NCBI GenBank assembly: GCA_046293555.1
Contig: JBKBOT010000025.1
Location: 1 to 21,637, forward strand
Direction: 5' to 3'
Source of the DNA: Pyrobaculum sp.
GTDB taxonomy: Archaea; Thermoproteota; Thermoprotei; Thermoproteales; Thermoproteaceae
DNA length: 21,637 nucleotides
The notes below the pieces were generated by a model. The model had not been told where the DNA came from. It did not search any database and worked only from the letters and a program-made list of their open reading frames with translations. The position numbers were made by a program, and so were the translations under genes. Below, one piece after another: positions 1 to 20,630 of the stretch; positions within the stretch are counted from its first letter, which is position 1, and each line of letters starts with the position of its first letter.

Positions 1-865
1 CCCTCATGTCGTCTATGTTGACCTCGTCGCAGTTGTAACATGTGAAGCTTAGGCCATAGAGCCCATACCACGCGTGTTCTCTCACCAGCTTGGCCAGGTT
101 GTGTCTGTCGACCACCTCCGCGATATATGGCTTGATCGCCTGCCAGACGGCAGCCCTCACTTGCCTCAACCATCTTTGGTATTTCTCACGCGCCTCCTCC
201 TCCATTATGTACGCCTCTACGTCGTGTACGCGCCTCAACTCTGTGGACAACTCCTCTAGCTGTTTGTATATGTAGTATATGTAGTCTAGCGCTGTGGCGG
301 CCGCGCGCGCCTCTTTGTACAGCCTGCATAGCGGCGAGTCATCGCACCCATCCCCAACCACGTCCCCCAACAGCGACGCTATGAAAACAACTGAGTTCTT
401 CGCATCGTTTGTGTAACGTCCCTTTATTGCCATTTCGAGTAGGTCAAATTCCCTCTTGATTTCTGCCAACTTTCTCCGTAGGTATTTTTCCGCCCTGTCC
501 TTTTTTGCCTCCCGTATGATCTCATCCAGGATTGGCCGCGTCTTTGAGAACTTAACCGCTATGTCGTATATTGTCTCCTTGAGCTCTGACATCACCCCAT
601 CGATTTTGGTCAACGCCCAGCCGATAAGCTCGCTGACTTGATGTGAGTCTATGTGGTTGCTTAGATACATGACTTCAAACTTGTCTGAGATGTTGTACAA
701 CACGGCCTCCGCCAACTCAACGTCTTTGATATACGTGCCATACCCCCCGCGGAGCTTTCGTTTTAATTCGACCCACCTCGATGCCTTTTTTGCGATGTTC
801 CTCGCACGTGTGGAGATATCCTCTACCAGCTTGCGAATCCTTCCGCTACGCCTCTTGACGGCCAT
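1..865 (-). CDS. Distant, C-terminally extended member of the basic-tag helical protein family (3'-partial, runs off window)
   Basis: Not in the ORF track. Hand translation from ATG 865 is open to the window edge: MAVKRRSGRIRKLVEDIS...DDSPLCRLYKEARAAATALDYIYYIY...CYNCDEVNIDDMR. The basic N-terminus and the PL..LY...LDYIY segment resemble the family C-terminal block. Overlaps the upstream gene end by 20 nt. Confidence 0.8.
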   Translation of the reverse strand, partial: MAVKRRSGRIRKLVEDISTRARNIAKKASRWVELKRKLRGGYGTYIKDVELAEAVLYNISDKFEVMYLSNHIDSHQVSELIGWALTKIDGVMSELKETIYDIAVKFSKTRPILDEIIREAKKDRAEKYLRRKLAEIKREFDLLEMAIKGRYTNDAKNSVVFIASLLGDVVGDGCDDSPLCRLYKEARAAATALDYIYYIYKQLEELSTELRRVHDVEAYIMEEEAREKYQRWLRQVRAAVWQAIKPYIAEVVDRHNLAKLVREHAWYGLYGLSFTCYNCDEVNIDDMR

Positions 866-1619
866 TGTGTTTATACGCCCGTAGTTTTGCCGCAGCTTCA
901 GACAAACGCTCCATGTGGGTATATATCTGCCTCATGGCGGCGAGCATTTTCGACGTCACGTCGGCCTTGTGGTAAAGCACGGCGAATTTTTTCGACAGGC
1001 GCCACCTAGCCCGCTGCCCGTCATCGCCGCGTTCAAGCGATTTGATTATATCGCCTATCGCCCTCTTTATCTGCGGCAGGGTTGCGCCAAGGATCTCGTC
1101 CGCCGCGGCCATATCCCTATCGAGCATCTCCATCTGGCGGGCCAACACGTCGAAGTGTTTTTCCAGCTTCCGCATCGCCTTGGCCGTGTTTTCGGCATGG
1201 TACCTCTTAACCCCCTCCCAAATGGCCTTTGAGATGCCGCGCCACATCCTCAAAAGTCTATACACAGGCACCTGCGTAATGCCTTGTATGTTCCGCCTGA
1301 TGATGTCGATGCCGCTCATGACATCCCCCACCAGTCTGTCTACATACTCCACGTTTGTGTATAGAGTCGGGTCTTTATAAGCCTCCTCCAACCTCTTGAC
1401 GAGGTTGCCCAACACAACCCTCCACCACCCTGTGTACTTGTCCACAAGCCTGGCCGTTGCGTTCAAGACGGCAGGCGGGACGGACTCCTTCCACCCGCCA
1501 GTCAGTGCGCTATGTGCGACACGTGCCGCGGCGGCAAGCTCCCCAAGCCTCCGGCGGACCTCCTCAGACCTGTCGACATTCTCCCTCTTGCCCTTCCCCC
1601 TACGCCTCCTTACAGACAC
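846..1619 (-). CDS. Basic-tag helical protein family member (257 aa)
   Basis: GTG at 1619 is 32 nt from the promoter motif and gives MSVRRRRGKGKR. Family motif LEEAYKDPTLYTNVEYV. Confidence 0.85.
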   Translation of the reverse strand: MSVRRRRGKGKRENVDRSEEVRRRLGELAAAARVAHSALTGGWKESVPPAVLNATARLVDKYTGWWRVVLGNLVKRLEEAYKDPTLYTNVEYVDRLVGDVMSGIDIIRRNIQGITQVPVYRLLRMWRGISKAIWEGVKRYHAENTAKAMRKLEKHFDVLARQMEMLDRDMAAADEILGATLPQIKRAIGDIIKSLERGDDGQRARWRLSKKFAVLYHKADVTSKMLAAMRQIYTHMERLSEAAAKLRAYKHNGRQEA

Positions 1620-1638
1620 GTCTGCCAGCACACATGGC

Positions 1639-1651
1639 TTTATATACGTCA
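1639..1651 (-). promoter_or_regulatory. TGAYG-TATA promoter copy (TGACGTATATAAA)
   Basis: Matches consensus TGAYGTATWTAWA; GTG start at +32. Confidence 0.85.
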
Positions 1652-1696
1652 TCTTTTAACGATGGTTTTAATAACGCTGGTGTGTGTACATCTATA

Positions 1697-2179
1697 GTGA
1701 AGACCATAAGCAAGGCCGAGGACCGCTGCAATAAATTCGCCGTGGTTCAAGCTGGTGAAAAGTATTACTACGTGAGGAGTCCTAAATACGACATCTGTTG
1801 GGATATCGACGAGCCGCGTGTGTTCTCCAGGCTTGTGATCCCCATGCATACGCCATATGACGTCGCAGCGCTTGTGGAGGGCAACAACGAGGCCGTGAGG
1901 CGTGACCTACATGAGGTGGCGTCTAAGGTGGCAGAGGTCTTGGACATGGACGCAGCGGCAGTTACGACGTTTGTAGAGGAGGTGTTTAAAAACCCGCTTG
2001 GGGCCATCGGCGATTTCTCAGACATATGGCTCAAGGCAGTGTTAGCCGCCACAGACGAGGCGCGTTACCTCCACGAGCTCGAGCTGTTGAAGCTGGCGTT
2101 TCTACGCAGAGCGTTAAAATTAGTAAAAAGACGCGACGTTATGACTATAGATATGGTGAAAGCGTACTCTAGGGGTTAA
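1697..2179 (+). CDS. Hypothetical protein (~160 aa)
   Basis: 3' part of track ORF 1457..2179. GTG 1697 follows TTTTAATA (1666-1673); the upstream extension overlaps the opposite-strand gene. Start uncertain. Confidence 0.7.
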   Translation: MKTISKAEDRCNKFAVVQAGEKYYYVRSPKYDICWDIDEPRVFSRLVIPMHTPYDVAALVEGNNEAVRRDLHEVASKVAEVLDMDAAAVTTFVEEVFKNPLGAIGDFSDIWLKAVLAATDEARYLHELELLKLAFLRRALKLVKRRDVMTIDMVKAYSRG

Positions 2180-3107
2180 CGATTCTTTTCCTCCAAGTCT
2201 TTGTGTCAGGGTTGAACCGAAAGCCCATTTTTTTCAACGTCTCCACAGTCTCTCTGAACTTATCCTCCGGAAGCCCCCTGTTTATCCTCACCACAACCTC
2301 ATCATCTGCATATACGTAATCCACCGGGAGTTTTCTGAGCTCATCCTCCAAGTCTTTTCTCTCCCCTGTCTTGTCCACATTGAAGATATAGTAGTCTACA
2401 ACGTATGGCTCCCGCCTGCATAAAATACGCATGAAGTTGTCATAGTACAAAAAGCCACAACGTTTGAACATAACGCCAATTGCGTCTAATAGCCGCAACA
2501 ACGCCTTTGCATCGTATTTGTACTCAATTTCCATCTGTCGATTGCGGTCAAAAAACTTCGCGATGGTGTACTTCTCCACGCCTTTCTCCACCTGCTCTTT
2601 TACGAGGCTGCGGAGGGGTTCAATCTCTTTCACAACCTCGAATTTTACGGCTAGTTTTTCATGGTCGCTCGGCTCCTTTGTCTTCTCTGTGGGGTGAGAT
2701 GCGATTTTTTTCACCACGGCCTGTCTCCCGCCAGACGTGATCACGGCGTGGTCTTCATATGTAGCAACCTCGACCGGCCCCTCCCCCACGGCAGCCCTCA
2801 CCTTGTCCAAATCTATGTAGAACACATCGCCGTATATGTACTCCTCAAACGCCTTTATGTCAGAAAACGGAGATTCTGTAAATGCGACGATGGCGTATAT
2901 GTTGTCTCCAGACGTCTTGATCTGGAGTCCGTTTGCTGTAAACAACATCTTCGCCATGTTGTTCACCACAGCGGCCGCGTTGAGCATATCTAAAAACACC
3001 CCGCCGTCTCTATGCTTGGCGTAGCCAAGCACCTGTTGCCTTTGAATGGCGTCTTCCACACGTCTTGCGCTTCCTGCCTTCTTCCTACGTTTCTTCCTTA
3101 CAGACAC
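2169..3107 (-). CDS. Diverged PCNA (sliding clamp)-like protein with basic N-terminal tag and extra C-terminal domain (312 aa)
   Basis: DGGVFLDMLNAAAVVNNMAKMLFTANGLQIK...AFEEY...FYIDLDKV and YKYDAKALLRLLDAIG...VDYYIF follow the PCNA N- and C-terminal patterns by eye. C-terminal LKKMGFRFNPDTKTW module. GTG 3107 at +32 from the motif gives MSVRKKRRKK. Confidence 0.6.
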   Translation of the reverse strand: MSVRKKRRKKAGSARRVEDAIQRQQVLGYAKHRDGGVFLDMLNAAAVVNNMAKMLFTANGLQIKTSGDNIYAIVAFTESPFSDIKAFEEYIYGDVFYIDLDKVRAAVGEGPVEVATYEDHAVITSGGRQAVVKKIASHPTEKTKEPSDHEKLAVKFEVVKEIEPLRSLVKEQVEKGVEKYTIAKFFDRNRQMEIEYKYDAKALLRLLDAIGVMFKRCGFLYYDNFMRILCRREPYVVDYYIFNVDKTGERKDLEDELRKLPVDYVYADDEVVVRINRGLPEDKFRETVETLKKMGFRFNPDTKTWRKRIVNP

Positions 3108-3126
3108 ATCTTCCCACACCTAGATA

Positions 3127-3139
3127 TATATATACGTCA
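3127..3139 (-). promoter_or_regulatory. TGAYG-TATA promoter copy; its TGA is the stop of 3137..3907
   Basis: TGACGTATATATA; GTG at +32 (3107). Confidence 0.85.
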
Positions 3140-3907
3140 CGAAGCTTGCGAGGCGTCAACTTGGCGCAATAGCTCCTCCGCATATTTCTTCATATATCTA
3201 ACCTCTCCGTATATAAGCTGTAGGATGTCTAACACGGAGACGTGTGTATATGCCGACTTACATATATCATACAGCTTGACGTAGAGAGGTCCCTCTACCG
3301 TCTCCCCCCAGTGGTCTGGACTACAGATCGAGACATCCTTTGCGCCCATCGCCTCTACTAACCCCCACTCTATATTGTTTACGACCTTGTGCTTTATTTC
3401 CGCCACGATGCGTATGCCCTCCATCGCGTCCACGGAGCGCACCTTGGCCAACAGTTTTTCCACCTCGTCGAGGGCCTTCTCCATTTCCGCCAGCCGTATG
3501 CGCAAATGGTCTGGCTCCGCCACCTCCCGGGCCTCCCTCAAGGCTTGACGCACCCCCGCCAGCCATCTGTTTGTAGATGTGTACATCGCCCTCACCATTT
3601 CCCGCATTATGCGATCCGCAACATCGATTGTCTCCACAGCCAGCTGTCGTATGTAATCAACATCTCTATACAACTCTGGCGTGTAATACGCCCTCTCGAC
3701 CTTGTCTCGAAGCTGATATATCATGAAGTCCCACATGTCCATCTTACTGCCAAACCGCCTGCGCAACTCCCTGTATATTTCTGGAGACATCCGCTTGACG
3801 CCATCTTTGAAGAATTTCATCGACTCGATGGACTTATTTACCTCGTGAACCATCTTGTTAAACGCCTCGCGGACCTTCCCATAACGACGCCTCCTCTTTA
3901 CTGACAT
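3137..3907 (-). CDS. Basic-tag helical protein family member (256 aa)
   Basis: MSVKRRRRYGK; VERAYYTPELYRDVDYI; EGPLYVKLYDI; ATG at +32 from the motif. Confidence 0.9.
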   Translation of the reverse strand: MSVKRRRRYGKVREAFNKMVHEVNKSIESMKFFKDGVKRMSPEIYRELRRRFGSKMDMWDFMIYQLRDKVERAYYTPELYRDVDYIRQLAVETIDVADRIMREMVRAMYTSTNRWLAGVRQALREAREVAEPDHLRIRLAEMEKALDEVEKLLAKVRSVDAMEGIRIVAEIKHKVVNNIEWGLVEAMGAKDVSICSPDHWGETVEGPLYVKLYDICKSAYTHVSVLDILQLIYGEVRYMKKYAEELLRQVDASQAS

Positions 3908-3926
3908 ATGTGTCTACAACCACGGC

Positions 3927-3939
3927 TTTAAATACGTCA
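3927..3939 (-). promoter_or_regulatory. TGAYG-TATA promoter copy (TGACGTATTTAAA)
   Basis: ATG at +32 (3907). Confidence 0.85.
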
Positions 3940-4777: not shown

Positions 4778-4790
4778 TGACGTATATATA
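4778..4790 (+). promoter_or_regulatory. TGAYG-TATA promoter copy
   Basis: TGACGTATATATA; GTG at +32 (4810). Confidence 0.85.
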
Positions 4791-4809
4791 CCTCCATGTC
4801 TTACACCAC

Positions 4810-5100
4810 GTGCCACGTAAGGTTAGAAGGGCGAGGAGGAGGTACACGAAGGAGGTTTATAGAAACTGGGTGGTTATCGAAGAGCTAGACCCAGACGAGG
4901 GCCGTATGAGCTACGTAATCCACAGAGATGGCACTGTGGAAGTCCAAATCTCGCTGGAACGTACGACATATGTATATCGCGTGCCAAAAGAGTTGTTCGA
5001 AAAGGCCAAGACAATGAAGCCGAGGGAGTGGATCAAGCTGTTTTACAACTCGCCGCGTGAGTTTCAATACGGGAAATTCAACGGGGAGGTATTCTATTAA
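4810..5100 (+). CDS. Small basic-tag protein, tandem paralogue A (96 aa)
   Basis: MPRKVRRARRRY; shares YRVP.EL.EKAKTMKPREWI.LFY.SPR.F with 5188..5481. Confidence 0.85.
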   Translation: MPRKVRRARRRYTKEVYRNWVVIEELDPDEGRMSYVIHRDGTVEVQISLERTTYVYRVPKELFEKAKTMKPREWIKLFYNSPREFQYGKFNGEVFY

Positions 5101-5136
5101 GGAGTAGTGAGGGAAGTGGCTTAGCCTCGTCCCACC

Positions 5137-5144
5137 TTTTTTTT
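5137..5144 (+). terminator. Oligo-T archaeal terminator candidate
   Basis: T8 run between the stop at 5100 and the next promoter; similar runs at 4759-4765 and 10366-10372. Confidence 0.45.
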
Positions 5145-5155
5145 CTTCTGATTAG

Positions 5156-5168
5156 TGATGTATATAAA
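5156..5168 (+). promoter_or_regulatory. TGAYG-TATA promoter copy (TGATGTATATAAA)
   Basis: ATG at +32 (5188). Confidence 0.8.
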
Positions 5169-5187
5169 CTATTGTGTCTCCCTCCAC

Positions 5188-5481
5188 ATGTCACGTAGGG
5201 TTAGAAGGGTGAGGAGAAGATTTAGGAAATCAGAATATGAAAACGTAGTGCGCATCGAGGAGATAAACCCCTCTGGGTCTACTACGATATATAGAGTTTA
5301 CAACGGCGGTATTGTGAAAGTCTACACAACGGGAGGCGGACTGTATGAAATATATCGTGTACCAAGGGAGCTATATGAGAAGGCAAAGACAATGAAGCCA
5401 AGGGAGTGGATCGAACTGTTTTACAGATCACCACGGAAGTTCCTGGGTCATATAGGAACTGATGTATTTATTGATGAATGA
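5188..5481 (+). CDS. Small basic-tag protein, tandem paralogue B (97 aa)
   Basis: MSRRVRRVRRRFRK; paralogue of 4810..5100. Confidence 0.85.
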   Translation: MSRRVRRVRRRFRKSEYENVVRIEEINPSGSTTIYRVYNGGIVKVYTTGGGLYEIYRVPRELYEKAKTMKPREWIELFYRSPRKFLGHIGTDVFIDE

Positions 5482-5530
5482 CGTTTAAGTTACTACGTTA
5501 AAAATAATTTAAATACACACATCTTTTTAC

Positions 5531-5911
5531 ATGACCACGGTAGAGGGGGCTAAAACTGCCCCAGCACTGTGGCTTCCAGACATCTACGTACGACTGGCTG
5601 AGTTGAAACGACAGCTTCTGCCGTTTGTAGAGCTTGAAAGTTTGTTACGCGACGAAAGGCAAGTATCCGCATACCGCCACGCCATGGCGCACCACCCAGC
5701 CATCGCCGAGATGTATAACCTCCTCAAGGATTTGTATGTAAAGCTAGTCTATGCCGGCCTACATGATGCTGCAAATGAGATATACAAGCTCTACGACAGC
5801 TACGTGGTTAAGACCACATACCGCCTCGACGAAAGAGACCTCCCAGCAGGACTTACATTCGACACAATTAACGCGGTATACAATACGCTAAACAAATACG
5901 TAAAGTTGTAG
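5531..5911 (+). CDS. Hypothetical helical protein (126 aa)
   Basis: Clean ORF with AAAAATAATTTAAATA (ordinary BRE/TATA-like) just upstream. Confidence 0.75.
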   Translation: MTTVEGAKTAPALWLPDIYVRLAELKRQLLPFVELESLLRDERQVSAYRHAMAHHPAIAEMYNLLKDLYVKLVYAGLHDAANEIYKLYDSYVVKTTYRLDERDLPAGLTFDTINAVYNTLNKYVKL

Positions 5912-6115
5912 CTTCTCGCAGTTCCAATCCCTTCTTTTTCTTCTCTTCTCGAAATGCCGCCTTAGGTGACCATGAGTTCTACAGATCGGCATGCATGTAG
6001 TAACCACAAGGCACTGAACCCCTTTTTGCTTGATTGGAGAAAAAGGGGGTTTTTCGTTAACAGCCGCCCCAAACGGATGGCTGAAAATATTTATTTCTAA
6101 GTGTGTTTCCACAAC

Positions 6116-6627: not shown

Positions 6628-7128
6628 ATGGGCAGGTGGGACAGAGGGGTGGACTTCGAGACCATGTACGTCCTCATTACGAGGAAAATGAAGCTGGACA
6701 AACGCAGCCGTTGTTACTTCGCAATATTGCTCACACAGCTGAGAAACGGAGCGCGTGTTAGCGAGGCGGTTAGGGCGTTTCAAACGTGGCTCCGCAGCGG
6801 CAGGGCTGAAGTGGAGGTGAAAGTAAGCAAGCGGAAGGATGTAGTCCGCCTCATAGTGATACCCACGGAGGTACTCGACATGAAGGCCGAATGTGTAGAG
6901 CTGGCAGTTGTAAACGAAAAAAAGCTTGTGGAAAGGCTAAAGGTGTTCGCAAAGCGGCGCCTCGGCGTAAATACCCACAGCCTGCGGTATGCCTTCATCA
7001 CGTATTTGTTGCGGCAGGGCGTGAGCCCCGCCATAGTGGCCAAGATCACACAACACGCCAAGCTGGACCACATCCTCACTTACACACAACAGAAGGCCGC
7101 AGAGGATTTATTAAGGCGGCTTGTGTGA
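6628..7128 (+). CDS. Tyrosine recombinase, catalytic domain only (166 aa)
   Basis: Catalytic residues R (NGARVSEA), K (SKRK), HxxR (THSLRYAF), H (TQHAK) and Y (ILTYT); no N-terminal core-binding domain. Confidence 0.9.
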   Translation: MGRWDRGVDFETMYVLITRKMKLDKRSRCYFAILLTQLRNGARVSEAVRAFQTWLRSGRAEVEVKVSKRKDVVRLIVIPTEVLDMKAECVELAVVNEKKLVERLKVFAKRRLGVNTHSLRYAFITYLLRQGVSPAIVAKITQHAKLDHILTYTQQKAAEDLLRRLV

Positions 7129-7138
7129 CGTATATATA
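7126..7138 (+). promoter_or_regulatory. TGAYG-TATA promoter copy; its TGA is the recombinase stop
   Basis: TGACGTATATATA; GTG at +32 (7158). Confidence 0.85.
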
Positions 7139-7157
7139 TCGGCACCATGGATTCGAC

Positions 7158-9212
7158 GTGGCTATACGCAGACGCCGTAGGAGGGGGGTTTACGTTGGGA
7201 CAGGTCTGCTCAACATAGATTATGAAGACCCGTATGTCATCACGCAGGCGTACAACTTGGCGAGGCGGCTGTATAAAAGCGGCATACCGCCATACGAAGT
7301 GACTATTTCCGGCATTGTGGACGCTATTTACATACACTTGAGAGGGCTCAAGCCTGTTACCTTACAGCTTGATCGGTACTTCCAGCGGCAGTTCCTCTTG
7401 AGATATATCCAATCTCCGGAGTACAGGGAGGCGTTGAGAAGGGCATTGGGGAACCCAAAGCTTGCTAGAGAATATGCGGCCAAGCTGTTGGCGATGTTTT
7501 ACGGCAGTGAGATACTTCAACGTGTCAAAAAGTGGGCTAGGGGGTTGACGTTAGAGGAATATATAGACAAGGCGGCTAAGCTCGAAAGAGAGCTTAGGGA
7601 GAGGTATTTAGACAGCGATGTAAGTAGCTATCTGGACCTCGCTGTGGAGGCAAAAAGGCTGTATGATAAGCTAGTTGACGTCTGGAGACGTGAGGAGGGT
7701 AGACTAAAATCGTCGCTAGTCAAGCGGTTGGAGGAAGTCGAATTTGACATCGAGAAGACGGGTAGACAAATGGATCGCGAGACTGCTGTGGTATTTCGTT
7801 CTCTCAGTGATGAATTGGGGAAGGCCTTAAGAAAAGTTGAAGCCAATATGTTGAAAATACTTAATGACTTTGATAGAGTTGAGTTTCACATACAACACAG
7901 GGGCCAAAAGTTGATGGATGTGGCTAGGCAGTTGGAGTTTGTATACGAGGTGTTTCCACATGTGAACATTGAGGACATCGTCAATGCGGTCAGCAATGCG
8001 CGTTTTGAAATAGAATATGTTGTCAACGAGCTTGGCGATTACTACAAGAGTTTCGATGAGTACCTAGACATGGTTAATGAGGCGCGTAACCAGTTGGCCA
8101 GACTGAGTGGCGAAAATAGAGAGAGGGTGAGACATCTGGAGGTGGGTCTAGACAAGGTGGAGGAGGCCGTAAGGGGTTTGTCTGAAGAGTTCAAGAAGTT
8201 TGTAGACAAGTACTCAGCCACAGTCAAACACCTCACCTCTGTCGAAGGCAGCATAAGGAGCTCGGCCAAAAGTGGCATAAAGAACATGTCCACGCTTGCC
8301 GCCGGAATTCCGGCAGGCGTCGTAGAGCTTAGGGAGGCGGCTAATGAGGTTGAGAGATTGTACAACATGTTGAAAGACGTACAGAAGGTGGTGGATACAT
8401 ATATAGATGACATATTGGTTGAGTATGGTTACACCAAGGGGTTGTTTACAAAATACTACGAGTTGTTGAAAATGAAGAAGGAATTAGAACGGCAGTTGGA
8501 GTGGTTCAGGGTCACGTCTAACGAAATGTCGAAAGGATCTTTCGAGAAGTCTATCAAGTTGAACGAAGACGTCATGAAGTACGTGGAGAGGATTAGGGAG
8601 GAGTTTGGACCGCGTGCGGCCATGTACGCCGCCACATTTCTGTTGGCAAATACCGTACACCGGCGTGAGCACCATCTAGATAGGTTCAAGGATTTTTTCA
8701 ACTTCGTGGACAACGTCAGTGCGGCAGGCAAGGCCGGCAAGTATTACGTCCTCGTCGACCGCTCTGGATCTGTCATGTATAACACCTACGATGGCGTGAT
8801 ACCTATATCTTGGACAACCGCACTTGCCTACATCTTGTGGAGAGACGTCGGCGATGTGGTAGTCAGATTTTTCGACGAGGTGGTCCACCCGCCTGTGGGG
8901 GACAAACAAGAATTCATAAAGTACATGTTACCGCCGACGTCCAGCAACATCGATATCATCAAGGCGCTGAGGGTGGCGTTAAACGAGGCATCGAGGGATC
9001 GAACGCTTGTGGTAGTTATGGACAGTTACGGCATGGAGCAACTGAGGAAAAACATGAAAACGGCAAAACCCCTCCTAAAGTTAGTGAGGAAGTACTTCAA
9101 AGACGTGAAGTTCGTAGTAATGTCGGAAACCTACAAGAGGGGCAAACGGGTCTTCATGATAGACAAACTGTCTGACGTCAACAAGCTGAGGGGGGTGGTG
9201 GAGTGGCTCTAG
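7158..9212 (+). CDS. Coiled-coil protein with partly degenerate C-terminal vWA domain (684 aa)
   Basis: Corrected start GTG gives MAIRRRRRRGV. LLNIDYEDPY block and YYVLVDRSGS...ISW.TAL.Y...VRFFD..VH.P are shared with 14509..17226. The GGT loop is replaced by TSSNI. Confidence 0.85.
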   Translation: MAIRRRRRRGVYVGTGLLNIDYEDPYVITQAYNLARRLYKSGIPPYEVTISGIVDAIYIHLRGLKPVTLQLDRYFQRQFLLRYIQSPEYREALRRALGNPKLAREYAAKLLAMFYGSEILQRVKKWARGLTLEEYIDKAAKLERELRERYLDSDVSSYLDLAVEAKRLYDKLVDVWRREEGRLKSSLVKRLEEVEFDIEKTGRQMDRETAVVFRSLSDELGKALRKVEANMLKILNDFDRVEFHIQHRGQKLMDVARQLEFVYEVFPHVNIEDIVNAVSNARFEIEYVVNELGDYYKSFDEYLDMVNEARNQLARLSGENRERVRHLEVGLDKVEEAVRGLSEEFKKFVDKYSATVKHLTSVEGSIRSSAKSGIKNMSTLAAGIPAGVVELREAANEVERLYNMLKDVQKVVDTYIDDILVEYGYTKGLFTKYYELLKMKKELERQLEWFRVTSNEMSKGSFEKSIKLNEDVMKYVERIREEFGPRAAMYAATFLLANTVHRREHHLDRFKDFFNFVDNVSAAGKAGKYYVLVDRSGSVMYNTYDGVIPISWTTALAYILWRDVGDVVVRFFDEVVHPPVGDKQEFIKYMLPPTSSNIDIIKALRVALNEASRDRTLVVVMDSYGMEQLRKNMKTAKPLLKLVRKYFKDVKFVVMSETYKRGKRVFMIDKLSDVNKLRGVVEWL

Positions 9213-9333: not shown

Positions 9334-9346
9334 TGACGTATATATA
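9334..9346 (+). promoter_or_regulatory. TGAYG-TATA promoter copy (no start at +32)
   Basis: TGACGTATATATA; the nearest in-frame start beyond +32 is TTG at +36 (9370), or ATG 9406. Confidence 0.7.
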
Positions 9347-9369
9347 CTGATGTGCTGGTGGGGGCAATT

Positions 9370-9789
9370 TTGAAGTCCATTAGGGAGGAGCCCAGCCTCA
9401 AGACCATGAGGGAGGAGGTTGACGACTGGTGGAGGGAGATTGTGGAGATGCTAGCCGCTTTTATGAAACTTGACTCAAATAGGTATTGTGTAGACTATAT
9501 GAGTTTTAACGAGGAACGGCTGAAGCTCGGCGGGAGGTTTGTGGCGTATGATGAACGGAGTGGACGTCCGTGGTTTGAGCTACGTCTCGACCTGTACGCA
9601 CATCGGCCGGAGATGTCGTATATGACCATCACCATAACGGACGTCGACGGGGGGCGTTATACATACAAGCTAAACTTGGCCACGGGCGAGGGGGCTGAGA
9701 AGGTCGAGGGGGGAGCGCCTATGGTCGCAGATCGGGTCAGGGGGGCAGGTCGAGGGAGGTCAGTCAAGAGAAGGGCGCTGGGGGGCTGA
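9370..9789 (+). CDS. Hypothetical protein (~139 aa; start uncertain)
   Basis: ORF downstream of the motif; G-rich, low-complexity C-terminal tail. Confidence 0.65.
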   Translation: MKSIREEPSLKTMREEVDDWWREIVEMLAAFMKLDSNRYCVDYMSFNEERLKLGGRFVAYDERSGRPWFELRLDLYAHRPEMSYMTITITDVDGGRYTYKLNLATGEGAEKVEGGAPMVADRVRGAGRGRSVKRRALGG

Positions 9790-14261: not shown

Positions 14262-14512
14262 AGAGGCGAGCGAGGTCGAAACAGATTAATATTACTGAAA
14301 TACATTTCGATACTGAGTACATATGTCCTACATGCGGCGAGCCGTTAGTATTCTTCGAGGATCAAGGCGTGTTTTTCGGCTGTAAGAATTGCGAAAAGTT
14401 CATAAGAATAAAATATAGTGAAATATGGCGGAATTTCGTCAGAGGGAAAAAGCTCAAATGGGACAAGCTGATGAGAGAGTTATACTTACGTTATATCGAC
14501 GACGAGGGCTAG
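14249..14512 (+). CDS. Small C4 Zn-ribbon protein (87 aa)
   Basis: CPTCGEPL...FGCKNC; overlaps the upstream stop; basic N-terminus MGDVKRRARSK. Confidence 0.75.
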   Translation: MGDVKRRARSKQINITEIHFDTEYICPTCGEPLVFFEDQGVFFGCKNCEKFIRIKYSEIWRNFVRGKKLKWDKLMRELYLRYIDDEG

Positions 14513-17226
14513 AGGTTTTTCAACGCCTCCCTGAGGTTTTCCTCAGTCGGCTCCTTTATCTTAACTGTCGGCACGTTTTTCTCAATTGTCTTATTGTCGC
14601 CGCCGATTATTATCGCCTTCACCTCCCTAAAGGCCTTCTTGGCCTCCTCAAGCAGCTCTGGGTCTACGATATCATAACCGTCTGTGACCAATATGAGCTT
14701 ATAGTCCTTTTTCGCCTCCTTGATCGCGACCTTCAACGCGTCGTTTATTGACGTGCCGCCTTCCGGCATTGCGGTCAGTAGGTATCTCACGATCTCCCTC
14801 TTGTCTTTTATGGGGTCATGCACCTGGGCGTCGAAAAACCTGACTGTCATCTTCTCCGGCTTGCCGTGCGCCATAATTGCGTACACCAGTGCGGTGGCCC
14901 AAGATATCGCAGGCACACCTGCGTACTCCTCGGCCATGGAGCCCGACCGGTCAATTAAGACGTAATATCTATCCCTTTCCTCTATATGCAGCTCTTTTAC
15001 GGTAAGCGATTTGGTGGCCAGCTTGTATTTAAACAGCTCCGGCGATGCTTGTGCTATGGCGCGGCTTGTGGGCGTCATATATAGCAACTGGCTCAGAGAG
15101 GTCATTTTCGTCACGCCCCCCGGCACGCCGAGTCTATCTGCTTTTTTTATCTCCTCATAGATGGATGCCCCTTTGGACGCAAGCTTGATAAACTTCTTAA
15201 GCCGTTCTACAAGCCTCTTGCGCTCAGCTGCGTCGCGTTCGCTTAATATTAACGCGGCAGCTTGAATGCCTGCCGATAAGCCGCCAAACAGTTGCCTCAA
15301 ATCCTCTGCAAGCTGTTGGACGTCCACCTCGCCCATACGCATCCGCTCCACCTCCTCGGAGAGACGTCTGGCGCCTCTAGTTGCTCGTTCTAAGCCATGT
15401 CTCAATGAACTAATCTGATCTGCGAGCTGCCTAAGGCTCTCGCCCGCCTGCCGCTCCATCTGCCTTTGGATCTGTTCCGCCAGCTCTCTGACCTGCCGCC
15501 GTAGGTCCTCCGGCAGCGACCCCTCCAGCTGCCTCAGCCGTTGGAGCAAATCTTGAAGCCCCTGTCCCCCTCTACGCAATGCGTTTTCAATGTCTTGAAG
15601 CAACTGGCTAAGCGCTTGCACGGCGTCAGCCTGTTGGCCGCCGTGTTGACCTACGCGTGGGCTTTGTTGCTGATCCTCACCAGCCCGGCCCTGGCCGCCC
15701 CCAGCCCGGCCGTCTGCCTCACGCCCGCCGGCCTGCCCAAGTGGACACACACCGCCGGGACACGTGTCCTCCATTTGCACTCCCCCCCGCCTGCGGCGTC
15801 TTGTTGTCGACTCGCCGACCCTCTGTGCATGCTGCGGCTGGCCTGCGGCTTGTTGCATCCCTTGTTGCATCTGTTGTAGCCGCCGCCGCAGTTCTTCTAT
15901 CTGGCGTTGTATGTCCTGCATTTGCTGTCCCCCGCCTTGTTGCATATGCCGCTGTGCACGTAGGCGTCTCCGCGCTTGTTTTTTGTATTGGTTCTCCATA
16001 TCTAACAGTCTATTCCAGACGGTAGCGATTTGGTCGCGTATGTCGGCGAGGTCTTTTTTGGTTCTGTCGACGGCCTTCTCCAACTGGCGGCTTGCCCTCC
16101 TACCCACGCCCCTCAGCTGACTGACTGTATCGCTCGGTGCCTGGTTTTGCTGTAACGTTTGCTTGATCCCCTCAAGCTCGTTGGAGAATTGCGATGCGCG
16201 ATTTCCAATTGCCAACATTTCATTTCTCAGCTCCTGTAGCCTCTTCCTAATTGCTTCAAGGCTTTCACGGATCTCGCCCGTCGCCTCTGGAAGCAACCGC
16301 TCAGCCTCCCTGCGTAGCCTCTCTACCATTGTCTCCAAGTCCTCCATCTGCTTCGCGATGTCGGATGATGCTGAGGTGATGCTTTGGGTGTTTTTCAACG
16401 CCCTGTCTATAGACTGACTCACATTGTCAACGTCGCCGGCCCTAGCCAGATTCGTCGCCTCAGTTAAGTTATATCGTAGGCCGTCCATTGCGCCCACTAT
16501 CGTACTTCTATAGTCACTTGATATATTACCCGCATAATCGTAGGCCCTCTTTGTGAGGTGTGCCAAGTATCTCGCCTTGATGTGCTCCGGCGCGCCCTCC
16601 AACATCCTCATCCCCTCTCTGCGGAGCTCCTCCAGCCTCTGGCTCGCCTCTTGTTGGTATCTGTTGAGCTCGTTCAGCATCATGTCGTACATCTGCCTGA
16701 TTGGTCTATACAACGCGGCGTGTTCCTCCAACGGTGCATCCAGCGGCTTCTCCCTAATTGCCTTCAAAAGCTTGGAGAGATCCTCCATGTATCCCTTAAA
16801 CCGCTCGTCTACTTTCGAAAGCCAGTTGAGCATTTTGGACAGATCTCTGGCCAGCTCCTCGGCCATGTGTCTAATTATGAACTTAGCCGCTATGTCTCTG
16901 GCCTTTGGGTAGTCGTATTTGGTCTCCTCAAGCAGCTTTTCGAACTCCTTCGACTTTATATGTTCAATAAGCCGCTCATAGAACTTCGTATAGTCGCGTT
17001 CCTCCCCCAGCTCCGGGCCGCGGTAGTGCGAAAAAAGCACATCTGCGAGCTCCGGCGTGGTCAACCTGCCCAGCGAAACGCCATGTCTCTGTAGATGTCT
17101 GGCGAGGTGAAACGTATGCGAAAGAGTGTACGGATCCTCGTAGTCGACGTTTAGGAGGATCCCAGGCGGGATATCTGGCTCCCTATCCTCCTTCTTTTCT
17201 TTCCGCCTCTTTGTGGCTCTGGTCAT
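14509..17226 (-). CDS. Large coiled-coil protein with intact C-terminal vWA (MIDAS) domain, ViaA/CoxE-like (905 aa)
   Basis: YYVLIDRSGSM (DxSxS), PEGGTSI (T) and LILVTDG (D); long heptad-rich middle with a Gln/Gly linker; N-terminal ILLNVDYEDPY; start MTRATKRRKEKK at +32 from the motif. Confidence 0.9.
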   Translation of the reverse strand: MTRATKRRKEKKEDREPDIPPGILLNVDYEDPYTLSHTFHLARHLQRHGVSLGRLTTPELADVLFSHYRGPELGEERDYTKFYERLIEHIKSKEFEKLLEETKYDYPKARDIAAKFIIRHMAEELARDLSKMLNWLSKVDERFKGYMEDLSKLLKAIREKPLDAPLEEHAALYRPIRQMYDMMLNELNRYQQEASQRLEELRREGMRMLEGAPEHIKARYLAHLTKRAYDYAGNISSDYRSTIVGAMDGLRYNLTEATNLARAGDVDNVSQSIDRALKNTQSITSASSDIAKQMEDLETMVERLRREAERLLPEATGEIRESLEAIRKRLQELRNEMLAIGNRASQFSNELEGIKQTLQQNQAPSDTVSQLRGVGRRASRQLEKAVDRTKKDLADIRDQIATVWNRLLDMENQYKKQARRRLRAQRHMQQGGGQQMQDIQRQIEELRRRLQQMQQGMQQAAGQPQHAQRVGESTTRRRRRGGVQMEDTCPGGVCPLGQAGGREADGRAGGGQGRAGEDQQQSPRVGQHGGQQADAVQALSQLLQDIENALRRGGQGLQDLLQRLRQLEGSLPEDLRRQVRELAEQIQRQMERQAGESLRQLADQISSLRHGLERATRGARRLSEEVERMRMGEVDVQQLAEDLRQLFGGLSAGIQAAALILSERDAAERKRLVERLKKFIKLASKGASIYEEIKKADRLGVPGGVTKMTSLSQLLYMTPTSRAIAQASPELFKYKLATKSLTVKELHIEERDRYYVLIDRSGSMAEEYAGVPAISWATALVYAIMAHGKPEKMTVRFFDAQVHDPIKDKREIVRYLLTAMPEGGTSINDALKVAIKEAKKDYKLILVTDGYDIVDPELLEEAKKAFREVKAIIIGGDNKTIEKNVPTVKIKEPTEENLREALKNL

Positions 17227-17245
17227 ATCACAATACGTCTACGGT

Positions 17246-17258
17246 TATATATACGTCA
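17246..17258 (-). promoter_or_regulatory. TGAYG-TATA promoter copy
   Basis: TGACGTATATATA; ATG at +32 (17226). Confidence 0.85.
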
Positions 17259-17292: not shown

Positions 17293-18051
17293 TCACTCCT
17301 CTTCGGCTATATCATGTATATGGTAAAGATAGCCATCCACATCCATAACGACCTTGCGGACTTTATACATCAGATATAACACCTCGACGATCGCGTACAG
17401 TTTTTCATATAGCTTCAACATCTTGGCGTAGAGAGGTCCCTTAGACATAACGTGTTTCTTGTGTTTAAGCGGCTCGTCCACACCAATCATGTTTTGCAGT
17501 TGTATCAACACGCCGGCGAGTTTTCCATCCAGCTCTTCCAAAGCCTCTGTGATCTCAAAACTATTGATATCCCCTCTGACTTTTTCCATCCATTTTTTTA
17601 TCTCCCCTACCAGCCGCTCCACCTCTCTCCACCGCTCTAATAGCCTTTCCCTGTCCGGACTGTTGTCCACCTCCTTTTTGATCTCATGTATCACATCTAG
17701 CGTCTTCTCAAGTCTTTTCAACTCGGCCCTCATCACGTCGTCTGCCCTCATATCTATTTCAAACAGTGGGTCTTTGAGGTCTTCGGCAAAGCCGGTCACG
17801 TAGTTTCTATCTCCATACAGCCTCGGCCTTAGGTACACGTAATTCAACTCGTCCACCAAATCATACAGCCTGTCTTCAAACCAGTGGAGGACGCCAAGTC
17901 TGACCAACTCCTCCACGGCCTTTTTGCTCATATCCTTCTTCACCCTCTCCAAAAATTTGACCTCATTGCGTATGTACCTTATGGCATCGCCCAGGAGCTC
18001 GCGGACCTCCTCAGCCGTGGCTTTGTCGAGCTTGCGCCTCCTTGTGGACAT
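17293..18051 (-). CDS. Basic-tag helical protein family member (252 aa)
   Basis: MSTRRRKLDK; LNYVYLRPRLYGDRNYV; KGPLYAKMLKLYEKLYA. Upstream TATATATATA (18068-18077) lacks the TGACG element. Confidence 0.9.
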   Translation of the reverse strand: MSTRRRKLDKATAEEVRELLGDAIRYIRNEVKFLERVKKDMSKKAVEELVRLGVLHWFEDRLYDLVDELNYVYLRPRLYGDRNYVTGFAEDLKDPLFEIDMRADDVMRAELKRLEKTLDVIHEIKKEVDNSPDRERLLERWREVERLVGEIKKWMEKVRGDINSFEITEALEELDGKLAGVLIQLQNMIGVDEPLKHKKHVMSKGPLYAKMLKLYEKLYAIVEVLYLMYKVRKVVMDVDGYLYHIHDIAEEE

Positions 18052-18077
18052 CTCCCTATACGTCTGATATATATATA

Positions 18078-18833
18078 CTATTCATCGAAAGCCTTCTCTA
18101 TCTCGTATACATGTGATACTATCATCGCAACGCTGGCGTAGATATAGTCTAAAAATTTGAGTGCCTCATACAGCGGGGCGACCTCATCGTAGAGCTCCAA
18201 CAGTTTGTCATACGGAGGCCCCATTTCCTCTATCTCCTCTCTTGGTCGGAGCCTCAAGCCAATCATAAGCTCCAAATTGTATACCACACCACCTAACATC
18301 TCAATTATTCCATATACCGTTGCATCATAGAACTCGGTGTGTTTGGACTCTTCTATCTTTTCTTTAATCCCTTTTATCAACCCCCTTATCGACGCCGCCC
18401 TTTCGACCAACCTCCGTTCTGTCGATGACTCGCGGCCTTGGCTCGATTCCAACTCCCTCATGACGTCATCCACAACATCCATGGCTTTGTCTATCTTGGC
18501 AAGCATGGCGTCTATCATGCTCTTAACTTTCGACTCTACGTAGGAGTTTACAGCTTTCGCCATCTCTACGAGTTTGGCCACATGTTCTCTATCTCTATAC
18601 AGCGCTGGGTCTAGATAAGTCCTCTCGAGTGTGTCCCTGATTTTGTATATATTTACCTCGATTTTCTCGAGAATGGTGCGGCCCAACCTCGCCAACTCCT
18701 TGACGGCTCTTGGACTCATCTCACGTTTGATCGAATTCCATGCATCAAGCTCCTCATCCACATAGTCAATGGCCTTCTTTAGCTGTCTGCGGACCTCTTT
18801 GGTGCTATCAGGCCTACGCCTCCTCACGGCCAT
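18078..18833 (-). CDS. Basic-tag helical protein family member (251 aa)
   Basis: MAVRRRRPDS at +32; LERTYLDPALYRDREHV; GPPYDKLLELY. Confidence 0.9.
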   Translation of the reverse strand: MAVRRRRPDSTKEVRRQLKKAIDYVDEELDAWNSIKREMSPRAVKELARLGRTILEKIEVNIYKIRDTLERTYLDPALYRDREHVAKLVEMAKAVNSYVESKVKSMIDAMLAKIDKAMDVVDDVMRELESSQGRESSTERRLVERAASIRGLIKGIKEKIEESKHTEFYDATVYGIIEMLGGVVYNLELMIGLRLRPREEIEEMGPPYDKLLELYDEVAPLYEALKFLDYIYASVAMIVSHVYEIEKAFDE

Positions 18834-18852
18834 ATCCACATGTGCCTATGGT

Positions 18853-18865
18853 TATATATACGTCA
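18853..18865 (-). promoter_or_regulatory. TGAYG-TATA promoter copy; its TGA is the stop of 18863..19108
   Basis: TGACGTATATATA; ATG at +32 (18833). Confidence 0.85.
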
Positions 18866-19108
18866 CTTTTTTGGCCTCGGCGTGGTTAGTGGGAGGGGGA
18901 CTATGTCGTCCGCCAGCTTGTACGCCATGGTTTCAAACATCTCGAACCGTAACTTGTCGCGTTTATGTATTCCGGCCTCGCGCCTCACCCCCCTCAGTTG
19001 TTTGAGGATGGTCCTTATGTTATGTGCCGCCTTAAGTAGGTTATTCCGAATTGTCGCAACCTTCCCCTCACCTCTTTCTCTGTTTGGCTTACGCCTCCTT
19101 ACTGCCAC
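18863..19108 (-). pseudogene. Truncated family member (81 aa, N-terminal third only)
   Basis: MAVRRRKPNRER...LRFEMFETMAYKLADDI aligns with LKFDLWEMSLYELLDKI of the neighbour, then breaks just before the AY.DP.LY motif. Confidence 0.7.
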
Positions 19109-19127
19109 ATTCCCACGCGTTTGTGTG

Positions 19128-19140
19128 TATATATACGTCA
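19128..19140 (-). promoter_or_regulatory. TGAYG-TATA promoter copy directly abutting the TAG of 19141..19869
   Basis: TGACGTATATATA; GTG at +32 (19108). Confidence 0.85.
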
Positions 19141-19869
19141 CTATTTGACGTATTGCAACAACCCGGCCAGCCGTGCCTTGAGGTCATCTATCGCCTCATA
19201 GTACATATAGTCGATGTAGAAAATCACGTCTTCAGTCACGACTGCCACCTCATAGAGTTTTGTCAACTTGTCACGTAGCGGAGTGTCTTCATGCGTAAGG
19301 TATTCAAGCATGACCCCCAAACTGCTTGTCACTGTACGAACTGGGGAACGTAGTTTTTCCAACGTAGAAATATCCCTAGTGACCTCTTCAGCTAGTTTCT
19401 TCAAGTCAACAAACGATGTATCGACGTCTGACATATATCCTGCTAGCTTCCATCGGTCCGGTCTTTTGGATATCTCAAGCCATATCTCACCCACCAGATC
19501 GGACATCCTCAAGAGTTTGTTCAACGCATTGCGTACCGCCTTCTGCATGTCTTGAGATATTTTGTTTACAACGTCTATCGCCTCCTCTGCCAACGTGTGG
19601 ATGTAGTCAACGTCTGTATACAGCTTTGGGTCGTAATACGCACTATCGATCTTATCCAACAGCTCGTACAAACTCATTTCCCACAAGTCGAACTTAAGCC
19701 CAGTGATGCCAACCTTGGCCAGCCCCCTGCGGACTTCCGACGGCATCTTACGCTTCGCTTTACGCAACACGCGAAATGTGTTGTATATAGAGTTTGTTAT
19801 CGAATACAACAGATATCGAATCTCATCAACCTTTTCCCTATCTACTCTCTTCTTCCTCCTTACTGTCAT
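19141..19869 (-). CDS. Basic-tag helical protein family member (242 aa)
   Basis: MTVRRKKRVDREK at +32; IDSAYYDPKLYTDVDYI; TPLRDKLTKLYE. Confidence 0.9.
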   Translation of the reverse strand: MTVRRKKRVDREKVDEIRYLLYSITNSIYNTFRVLRKAKRKMPSEVRRGLAKVGITGLKFDLWEMSLYELLDKIDSAYYDPKLYTDVDYIHTLAEEAIDVVNKISQDMQKAVRNALNKLLRMSDLVGEIWLEISKRPDRWKLAGYMSDVDTSFVDLKKLAEEVTRDISTLEKLRSPVRTVTSSLGVMLEYLTHEDTPLRDKLTKLYEVAVVTEDVIFYIDYMYYEAIDDLKARLAGLLQYVK

Positions 19870-19888
19870 ATACACATACGTCTACAGT

Positions 19889-19901
19889 TATAAATACATC
19901 A
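19889..19901 (-). promoter_or_regulatory. TGAYG-TATA promoter copy (TGATGTATTTATA); its TGA is the stop of 19899..20630
   Basis: ATG at +32 (19869). Confidence 0.8.
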
Positions 19902-20630
19902 TTTAATGGCGTCTTCTATCTCGGCCACAAGGGCCGAGATTTCTCCAAGTTGACTGAATATGGAATACAAGACGTAGATCACGCCGACGGATGCGTACAG
20001 CCTCTCGTATAGTTTCAACATCTTGGCGTATAGAGGCCCCTTGGCCACCACGCGTTCTCTGTCTTTTCCAAGCGGGTCGTCTACATTCATTATACGTCTC
20101 AATGCCACCATCATGCTCGCGATGGGGTATGTGGATTGGTATATATGCCACATGTCGATGGGGTAGATCTTCTTTATCTCCTCCGCCGCCTCCACAGCCT
20201 CTCTCCACAGCCCCAGTAGCCTCTCTCCGTCCGGACTGTTGTCTATCTCTCCCCCGATTTCGCCCATCGCCTTGTCCACAGCCCTCTTGAGCCTCTCCAG
20301 CTCTGCGTCTGCCGCCCTCCCCACCTTTATCGATGTGTTGAAAACATAGTCTCTAGCCATCTCTACGAGTTTGGCCACATGTTCTCTATCTCTATACAGC
20401 GCCGGGTCTAGATATGCCCTCTCCATGGCGTCCGCCAGCCTGTGTAGCCTTACCTCAAACAGCTCGAGGTCTATATCCCCAACCCTGGCCAACTCCTTGC
20501 GTACCTCCGGCCTCACGCCGCGCCTCCATGCATAGAGCTCACGCGCCAACTCCCTTAAGTCCCCCGCAGCCTTTTCCAACAGCCTACGGACCCTTCTCGT
20601 CCTCCAATCTTTACGCCTCCTTACGGCCAC
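19899..20630 (-). CDS. Basic-tag helical protein family member (243 aa), mosaic
   Basis: GTG at +32 gives MAVRRRKDWRTRR; MERAYLDPALYRDREHV; KGPLYAKMLKLYERLYA. Confidence 0.9.
   Translation of the reverse strand: MAVRRRKDWRTRRVRRLLEKAAGDLRELARELYAWRRGVRPEVRKELARVGDIDLELFEVRLHRLADAMERAYLDPALYRDREHVAKLVEMARDYVFNTSIKVGRAADAELERLKRAVDKAMGEIGGEIDNSPDGERLLGLWREAVEAAEEIKKIYPIDMWHIYQSTYPIASMMVALRRIMNVDDPLGKDRERVVAKGPLYAKMLKLYERLYASVGVIYVLYSIFSQLGEISALVAEIEDAIK

Follow-up and report, generated by a model that had tools for sequence, protein, structure and literature searches.

The 21,637-nucleotide contig JBKBOT010000025.1 of Pyrobaculum sp. (assembly GCA_046293555.1), analysed here over its whole length (the window; contig C25 of a 1.75-Mb genome in 145 contigs), carries a private promoter class that is strongly associated with polybasic protein termini. 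Together with two further contigs of the same genome, C21 and C19, the polybasic set comprises about 25 genes from at least nine unrelated families, with a run of 4–8 arginine or lysine residues at one terminus. The three contigs probably belong to one or more mobile elements of this Thermoproteaceae archaeon, rich in ORFans and probably viral. We tentatively favour, at somewhat less than an even chance, the reading that the basic tails are electrostatic anchors to a polyanion, most likely DNA, that gather a co-regulated protein set. Charged nucleic-acid-binding arms are themselves already known; what is unusual here is the presence of such tails on many unrelated families tied to one promoter. 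A preliminary description of the window had put forward a more restricted proposal, in which the private promoter was coupled to a single basic N-terminal address tag.

The promoter is represented by the 13-mer TGAYGTATWTAWA, which occurs at 13 sites in the window, compared with a mean of 0.01 in shuffled sequence (0 of 100 shuffles reached 13); the TGAYG word by itself is not enriched there (90 observed versus 84.7 expected). Eleven of the 13 sites place the motif's T exactly 32 nt upstream of the ATG or GTG of a tagged gene, and the products encoded from these starts open with M-[SATP]-x-(R/K)4–7. The remaining two sites, 9334 and 20917, precede genes without an N-terminal tag. The 11 genes are those to which the preliminary description had assigned a TGAYG–TATA promoter, and all of them have the full 13-mer. 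It had also singled out the genes starting at 865 and 18051 as tagged without the full motif, which is correct: the former has no motif and the latter has a degenerate copy, TGAATAGTATATATA, at about −33.

TGAYG occupies the position of the transcription factor B-recognition element (BRE), from −32 to −28, and the TATA box follows directly, spanning −27 to −20 in all 11 motif genes. Alignment of the 13 tagged starts reveals that a weaker TAGRYGT element separates the TATA box from the start, that A occupies −2, with A-Y immediately before the start codon, and that the second codon contains an invariant C. For comparison, a matrix derived from host genes, trained with contigs C19, C21 and C25 set aside, gives a host promoter consensus of A(−30), TTATAAA(−26 to −20) and C(−1) ahead of the start. 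Promoters of the element match this leaderless geometry, and transcription of the motif genes should therefore begin at or beside the start codon. TGAYG is absent from the host consensus; it is probably the mark of co-regulated genes that an element-specific factor or a particular TFB recognises.

Across the genome, the 13-mer is found at 31 sites: 13 on C25, 7 on C21, 3 on C19 and 8 elsewhere. The combined pattern of motif and start has 15 occurrences in this genome and a single one across 61 other genomes of the order, which justifies calling the promoter private, as had been claimed; a reversed control pattern gave no occurrences in any genome scanned. Searches with a DNA pattern combining promoter and tag returned no matches in viral contigs, one in metagenome contigs that was a 9-codon chance open reading frame (ORF), and two in genome contigs that were unrelated sequence (one by BLAST against this genome, and by inspection).

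All 13 basic N-termini quoted in the preliminary description are present at the starts listed in Table 1, and the host-trained matrix selects the same start for 12 of them. The exception, at 865, is probably operon-internal, its own promoter missing and its start overlapping the end of the upstream gene, and it still bears the tag MAVKRRSGRIRK. Downstream starts behind the Shine–Dalgarno-like GGAGG were considered and rejected: inspection found no suitably spaced start codon, the matrix picks the upstream starts, and in-frame conservation and the first modelled helix both begin at residue 9, which makes a downstream start unlikely.

Residues 2–12 of the 13 tagged proteins contain 59 Arg and 22 Lys among 143 positions (57%), with 3 Glu and 6 Gly, while the remainder of these proteins has 16.5% Arg plus Lys and 9.6% Glu. 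The second residue is Ser, Ala, Thr or Pro in 13/13, versus 31% of host genes. No hydrophobic stretch follows the tags: no 15-residue Kyte–Doolittle mean within the first 60 residues exceeds 1.27, and most stay below 1. A Sec or Tat signal, already dismissed in the preliminary description, can be ruled out on these grounds, as there is no h-region behind the basic run and residues 9–38 of the helical paralogues form a bundle helix. The 13 tags fall into four families: eight helical paralogues (family A), two CoxE-type von Willebrand factor A (vWA) proteins, two small paralogues and one protein with a clamp-like predicted fold. The claim that the tag spans unrelated proteins is thus upheld at the level of four families, but not as 13 independent events.

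Beyond the window, the basic run also appears at the other end of proteins. Genes were called with a simple codon-usage score of our own (1,898 ORFs, 92% of the genome); an N-tag was defined as at least four Lys or Arg in residues 2–11 including a run of three, and a C-tag as at least five among the final 12 residues, with four of them consecutive, both thresholds having been set after seeing the data. By these definitions, N-tags and C-tags are found on 12/25 and 0/25 genes of C25, 0/37 and 11/37 of C21, and 2/35 and 1/35 of C19, versus 21/1,798 and 19/1,798 on all other contigs, which we treat as host. Genes with the strict motif at −32 are N-tagged in 11 of 20 cases, versus 24 of 1,875 motif-negative genes (Fisher P = 2e-15, a figure that paralogy inflates), and the enrichment check that had been suggested for the whole replicon is in this sense positive when made genome-wide.

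At least four families of C21 under this promoter class have a C-terminal poly-Arg tail. One of these, family B, consists of seven proteins of ~180 residues with 21–30% identity to the first member, all of which end in a variable linker followed by poly-Arg/Lys (for example, …NNRRRRRRRR and …PRRRRRRWTV). Four members have the strict motif at −32, and the other three lie directly behind a co-oriented motif gene in an operon-like arrangement. The AlphaFold model of the family (pLDDT 82) comprises two long helices, a six-stranded sheet and helices, with residues 160–178 and 180–182 of the tail at pLDDT <50; the fold had no PDB match at E ≤ 0.001, and the only relative of family B in the protein collections searched was itself. 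Further C-tailed genes of C21 lie at 1259, 4551 and 16001, the first two with the relaxed motif TAACGTAT…, and the N-tagged genes of C19, 25805 (a helix-turn-helix (HTH) protein) and 27848, have a shifted or relaxed motif. C21:16001 and C21:17188 are paralogous (E = 5e-15) but differ in which end is basic: the former ends in …AAAARRRRRRTGI (…RRRRRRTGI) and the latter begins with MALRRRAAN, so that the run can occupy either terminus within one family. Coupling to one N-terminal tag, as originally proposed, is therefore too narrow a description. C21 also encodes (9902–10312) a 136-residue protein with a polyacidic tail, …GDMEEEGEEEGEEGGGKEEG, which may serve the polybasic set as counter-ion or chaperone.

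Family A contains seven proteins of ~250 residues that retain the tag throughout at 19–36% identity to the first member, and only six alignment columns are invariant, M1 and R5 among them. An 81-residue protein, 34% identical to the product of 19899–20630 over 73 columns (E = 0.01), looks like a truncated eighth member. An AlphaFold model of the 251-residue paralogue starting at 18833, based on the paralogue alignment (pLDDT 90), predicts an all-helical bundle into which helix 1 packs, with residues 1–8 free of secondary structure and residues 1–5 at pLDDT <50. Nothing in PDB or BFVD matched this fold at E ≤ 0.001, and the ESM Atlas gave no usable match; the best viral matches, two of which we take to be STSV1 proteins, were too weak (E = 0.04–0.07, TM 0.3) and were left unused. 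No relatives of family A were found in 39 of 40 related genomes, the remaining one giving a single chance-level match (E = 6.5e-4), and among 5.8 billion proteins only those of its own contig were recovered. The two small paralogues are 49% identical, and Pfam and PHROGs scans of the tagged proteins gave coiled-coil noise only.

The two vWA proteins of the window are paralogues of each other and have cellular homologues. Exhaustive HMMER searching with the 684-residue copy recovered seven proteins at E ≤ 0.001: itself, the 905-residue paralogue and five of 411–453 residues (matches at E = 1.9e-12 to 7.6e-4, and 2.9e-25 against a host-type query). Three of the five homologue clusters, from Pyrobaculum islandicum, Thermoproteus tenax and Thermocladium, are named by their source as ‘VWA containing CoxE family protein’ and two are unnamed; the host itself has two CoxE-type vWA genes, on contigs C58 and C4. 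Both element copies share with these proteins a C-terminal vWA domain and an N-terminal LLNVDY block, which places them in the CoxE-type group, and the 905-residue copy matches Pfam VWA_2 at E = 3e-4 (21.7 bits, under the cut-off of 27). The 684-residue copy had no match among phage records or viral contigs. Five of seven cellular homologues inspected, including the two host copies, start directly with M-(G/SG)-x-L(L/I)NVDY, whereas the element copies have 12 (684 residues) and 20 (905 residues) extra residues, with the basic run among them, ahead of the LLNVDY block and, unlike cellular members, a coiled-coil insert of roughly 250–450 residues. The expectation that cellular homologues lack the tag is therefore borne out for these five, but not for a Thermocladium protein (MSSEKRRRG…) and one unnamed protein (MTRHHREEG…).

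For the 312-residue protein, described earlier as PCNA-like, any likeness is at the level of predicted fold, not of sequence: it has no Pfam family at E ≤ 0.01, which leaves it outside PCNA_N and PCNA_C, its BLASTP match to the PCNA of C21 has E = 1.7, and no PDB sequence matched it to a clamp. Its ESM Atlas model (pTM 0.63) resembles clamp clusters at TM 0.55–0.59 over roughly residues 22–246, with predictions on both sides of the comparison, and the tag would thus precede a clamp-like fold, which we treat as a lead and not as proof. In the protein collections searched, its only relative was itself. As judged from sequences and models, tails appear to have been added to the element's versions of cellular families (vWA and clamp-like).

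Whether selection acts on the protein or on the nucleotides bears on two of the competing explanations. A purine-rich AGGAGG-type sequence after the leaderless start could aid initiation, leaving the basic residues as a by-product: GTAAGGAGGCGTA-like words recur in seven tagged starts, GGAGG matches the usual anti-Shine–Dalgarno complement, and AGR codons are over-used in the N-tags (43/59 versus 201/345 in gene bodies, P = 0.04), a modest excess that also fits shared descent within family A. C21 genes under the same promoter, however, begin with ordinary sequence and have no AGGAGG stretch; equal charge is reached through different codons in the 7158 vWA gene and the two small paralogues; and Glu and Gly are nearly absent from the tags even though GAR and GGR are equally purine-rich. 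C-terminal tails, moreover, sit far from any promoter and use mostly CGN for Arg (35/60 codons, compared with 16/59 in the N-tags). The existence of C-terminal tails, their CGN codons, the scarcity of Glu and Gly and the ordinary C21 starts together point to selection on protein rather than mRNA, making a nucleotide-level signal highly improbable as the explanation, while a minor mRNA-level effect on the N-tags may exist.

Alternatively, a cassette of promoter plus first codons may have been copied by recombination, with the basic run having little function of its own. Some copying of such a module is likely, given the words shared among tagged starts and the first 13 nt (GTGTCTGTAAGGA) common to the 312-residue gene and family A gene 1619. 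In addition, 8 of the 13 tags belong to one paralogous family, and the C25 gene at 9352 has its promoter fused by deletion. As an account of the tails themselves we nevertheless consider hitch-hiking very unlikely, because the tag persists in family A despite the divergence of the bodies, the vWA and small-paralogue tags differ in nucleotides, and a promoter cassette cannot account for C-terminal tails.

The explanation that we favour is an element-wide, probably virus-like regulon expressed from a shared extended archaeal promoter, whose products bear short unstructured Arg/Lys tails, N-terminal on C25 and C-terminal on C21. At the protein level, these tails would act as electrostatic anchors to a polyanion, most likely the DNA of the element, or RNA, and would concentrate the set at the genome, within a nucleoprotein core or in a zone of replication or assembly. 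Electrostatic anchoring is the simplest reading for tails that are short, unstructured, defined by charge, tolerated at either end, added to cellular folds and present on clamp-like and HTH proteins (one HTH protein is among the tagged element proteins). On this reading, the set should be co-expressed, bind nucleic acid and be linked to particles. The termini are Arg/Lys-dominated segments predicted to be disordered, with the basic content and low-pLDDT ends given above, and comparable termini occur in the host. Of 40 host proteins that have termini of this kind, we scanned the 20 most strongly tagged; 14 of them had a Pfam family. By family name, 8 of these 14 are nucleic-acid types (S26e, S24e, L24, RadA, XPB, RFC subunit, TRAM and AbrB/MazE), two are membrane proteins and four are of other types.

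Polybasic ends might instead bind anionic archaeal lipids at the cell membrane or a viral envelope. Two of the 14 Pfam-assigned host proteins, Sec61beta and PsiE, are membrane proteins, so such tails also occur beside membranes; C21 and C19 encode many small membrane proteins; and known viruses of Thermoproteales are described as enveloped (PMC7189273). We regard a membrane anchor as very doubtful, since no hydrophobic or amphipathic segment adjoins the tags (hydropathy as above), helix 1 of family A lies within its bundle, and the clamp-like and HTH proteins among the tagged folds point to DNA.

A more specific alternative is that the polybasic run is an address tag, recognised by a dedicated receptor or scaffold through which the set is loaded into a virion, vesicle or other particle, which is close to the targeting peptide envisaged in the preliminary description. 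It would agree with a single regulon that places one kind of terminal tag on unrelated folds, with the addition of tails to the element's versions of cellular families and with the uniformly small second residue. The virus-like genes described below fit as well, as does the detection of a homologue of the ATV vWA-domain protein p892 in SMV1 virions, reported in a review (PMC4124505). The run nevertheless varies in length, sequence and terminus, which is more typical of charge-driven binding, and no candidate receptor, scaffold, particle, capsid protein, protease or cleavage motif was identified. Metal-ion-dependent adhesion sites of vWA domains, moreover, usually bind acidic side chains rather than basic ones. 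A dedicated address tag is quite unlikely on this balance; the common tail of the targeting proposal stands, but a position-independent, composition-defined tail fits general electrostatic binding better than a targeting peptide. A broader version, in which a composition-coded terminal signal at either end of at least nine families under one promoter sorts the regulon to the virion interior, a nucleoprotein core or a DNA condensate, we rate as unlikely.

Comparison with known systems helps to place the tails. Arg-rich arms are found in the C-terminal domain of the hepatitis B core protein and at the N termini of noda-, bromo- and circovirus capsid proteins, and like the present tails they are short, disordered Arg/Lys runs at either end of folded proteins of mobile elements. 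In those viruses, however, one or two capsid or core proteins carry them, whereas here at least nine families tied to one promoter class do, and binding is presumed. Shared cargo tags, such as the capsid-targeting sequence of phage T4, the encapsulation peptides of microcompartments and the cargo-loading peptides of encapsulins, likewise place one short terminal tag on unrelated proteins, at the N or C terminus in microcompartments; those tags, however, are defined motifs or amphipathic helices and dock on a known shell or scaffold, while the tails described here are pure charge. A search of the open-access literature found no description of such promoter–tail coupling or of a similar Pyrobaculum element.

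Among viruses of related hosts, a private promoter seems to be ordinary but systematic polybasic ends do not. Pyrobaculum spherical virus (PSV) has its own conserved upstream block of ~45 nt before about eight leaderless genes, with a TATA box ~27 nt before the start, which is why a private promoter need not be unusual. Its sequence differs from that of the element (TGAYG plus TATATATA) and its promoter class is unlinked to polybasic termini. In the PSV genome (NC_005872), the block reads TTACG..GGCGTAAA.TTTAAAAATCC…GGATAC and stands before genes 6420, 21144, 23326, 23977, 24596, 26068 and 26950. With the same tag definitions, PSV has N-tags on 2/48 and C-tags on 1/48 proteins, and Sulfolobus monocaudavirus 1 (SMV1) has 2/49 N-tags and no C-tags, showing no polybasic habit.

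By gene content, a relation of the element to large spindle viruses is plausible. The AAA ATPase of C21 matches the ‘conserved archaeal viral AAA ATPase’ of Acidianus tailed spindle virus (ATSV) and SMV1–4 (E = 9e-11 to 5e-7), and the 905-residue vWA protein weakly matches vWA proteins of SMV1–3 (E = 3e-4 to 4e-3); it is on this ATPase, of the type of p529 in Acidianus two-tailed virus (ATV), as well as on the weak vWA matches that the suggestion rests. The review PMC4124505 states that p529-type ATPases are present in Sulfolobus tengchongensis spindle-shaped viruses 1 and 2 (STSV1/2) and SMV1, and describes an interaction of the vWA protein p892 with p618, a MoxR ATPase, which it links to tail development. 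Likeness to Bicaudaviridae (ATV, SMV1–4, ATSV and STSV) extends from the p529-type ATPase and long coiled-coil vWA proteins to many coiled-coil paralogues, a small integrase and CopG-like genes. On the other side, the matches are weak and cover 22–56% of the query, known members infect Sulfolobales, and membership is not established; no capsid, shell or protease genes were recognised by Pfam or PHROGs and no MoxR partner was identified, although no search was aimed at the bicaudavirus capsid or MoxR.

Several observations weigh against reading the tails as nucleic-acid anchors of one viral regulon. Two of the Pfam-assigned host proteins with such termini are membrane proteins, and since SMV1 and PSV lack the polybasic habit, viral DNA-binding arms are no general expectation for such viruses. 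Some motif genes have no basic end, namely C21:5625 (a small membrane protein) and C19:26584. Every tag count is inflated by paralogy, the gene calls are crude and the tag thresholds post hoc. The three contigs are linked by the shared motif, one gene pair with 60% identity and shared 25-mers, not by assembly, and contig-end overlaps did not join C25 to C21 or C19. Searches for relatives of the element were negative, which leaves the rule observed a single time, in one metagenome-derived assembly. Support comes from sequence and structural models, and the sole run holding the sequence is a DNA run from a hot-spring metagenome, with no RNA run listed.

Table 1 Tagged genes and other motif genes of the window
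Feature	N terminus	Coordinates	Strand	Promoter (13-mer)	Start	Remarks
Family A paralogue	MAVKRRSGRIRK...	2..865	-		865	Cut by contig end; no motif of its own; overlaps gene 846
Family A helical paralogue, 257 aa	MSVRRRRGKGKR...	846..1651	-	1639-1651	GTG 1619	
Sliding-clamp-like predicted fold, 312 aa	MSVRKKRRKKAGSARR...	2169..3139	-	3127-3139	GTG 3107	
Family A paralogue, 256 aa	MSVKRRRRYGK...	3137..3939	-	3927-3939	ATG 3907	
Small paralogue 1, 96 aa	MPRKVRRARRRY...	4778..5100	+	4778-4790	GTG 4810	
Small paralogue 2, 97 aa	MSRRVRRVRRRF...	5156..5481	+	5156-5168	ATG 5188	
CoxE-type vWA with coiled-coil insert, 684 aa	MAIRRRRRRGVYVGTGLLNIDY...	7126..9212	+	7126-7138	GTG 7158	
Motif gene without N-tag		9334..9789	+			60% identical to C21:14903-15388; C terminus moderately basic, …GRGRSVKRRALGG
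Second vWA/coiled-coil protein, 905 aa	MTRATKRRKEKKEDR...	14509..17258	-	17246-17258	ATG 17226	Q-rich stretch
Family A paralogue, 252 aa	MSTRRRKLDK...	17293..18084	-		ATG 18051	Degenerate motif TGAATAGTATATATA
Family A paralogue, 251 aa	MAVRRRRPDS...	18078..18865	-	18853-18865	ATG 18833	
Apparently truncated family A member, 81 aa	MAVRRRKPNR...	18863..19140	-	19128-19140	GTG 19108	
Family A paralogue, 242 aa	MTVRRKKRVD...	19141..19901	-	19889-19901	ATG 19869	
Family A paralogue, 243 aa	MAVRRRKDWR...	19899..20662	-	20650-20662	GTG 20630	
Motif gene without N-tag	MSEFKCKAVF...	20917..21635	+	20917-20929	ATG 20949	Runs off contig

The untagged motif gene at C25 9352–9789 and its relative C21:14903–15388 both have a moderately basic C terminus. 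The C25 copy is shorter by ~66 nt just after the shared promoter, the missing part including the ATG and first ~22 codons of the C21 copy, and it possibly starts at TTG 9370; a search of 119 further genomes of the class found no match to C21:14903. A tyrosine recombinase of very small size, 166 residues (6628–7128; Pfam Phage_integrase, E = 3.8e-7, catalytic C-terminal part only), ends directly before the promoter of the 7158 vWA gene. The Gln-rich stretch of the 905-residue vWA gene is a low-complexity region at 15500–16100 (QQGGGQQMQ…QQMQQGMQQ), and the protein encoded at C21 3605–4207 has a 12-Gln run after MMRGPRRR.

The middle of the window, ~9.8–14.5 kb, has host-type promoters and includes a PaREP1-family gene and an AAA_15 ATPase gene. 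The latter (12559–13614) adjoins the PaREP1 gene and has a paralogue on a host contig (C42:6633–7787) with a near-identical start, MRLVVENFGP…, and a basic end, …YRRKRRKNSDK; C25 and C42 have 106 25-mers in common. This AAA_15/PaREP1 part looks, from the sequence, like a host-type repeated cassette. Two labels given to other genes of the window, ‘MYG1’ (10404–11519) and ‘RHH’ (6101–6400), were not supported by Pfam, neither product having a family at E ≤ 0.01. No tRNA genes or Rfam families were found in the window.

Contig C21 encodes a true PCNA (438–1196), a STAND NTPase, the AAA ATPase, a TGT-like protein, a prepilin-peptidase-like protein and many small membrane proteins. The TGT-like gene (18551–19483) falls narrowly short of the cut-off in its match to Pfam TGT (E = 9e-6); the presence of such a homologue on a mobile element could point to DNA modification with a 7-deazaguanine base. 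The type IV prepilin-peptidase-like membrane protein (16669–17184) has E = 5.5e-4, under the cut-off. Contig C19 encodes a primase-helicase-like protein of 799 residues, Csa1, HTH proteins and a large surface-protein-like ORF. Its csa1 gene (5107–5958; CRISPR-associated exonuclease, E = 2e-89) is full-length and stands beside the primase/helicase-like gene (6599–8998), and for this reason C19 may represent either an island within the chromosome or an element that acquired a cas gene by capture.

Because nearly every protein of crenarchaeal viruses and plasmids is an ORFan, any rule by which they can be grouped has value. In the present case a 13-nt promoter element and a terminal basic run, both legible in the sequence itself, single out ~25 genes as one functional set. 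If the tails sort proteins to the genome or to particles, they would be a very economical targeting device at 90–100 °C and would lend themselves to use as a thermostable tag as they stand. Should they be no more than DNA-binding arms, cellular proteins (CoxE-type vWA and clamp-like) would have been recruited by a mobile element through an added charged tail. Were the composition-coded version of sorting to hold, an organism that has no compartments would possess a simple code for sorting proteins, one that does not depend on the position of the signal.

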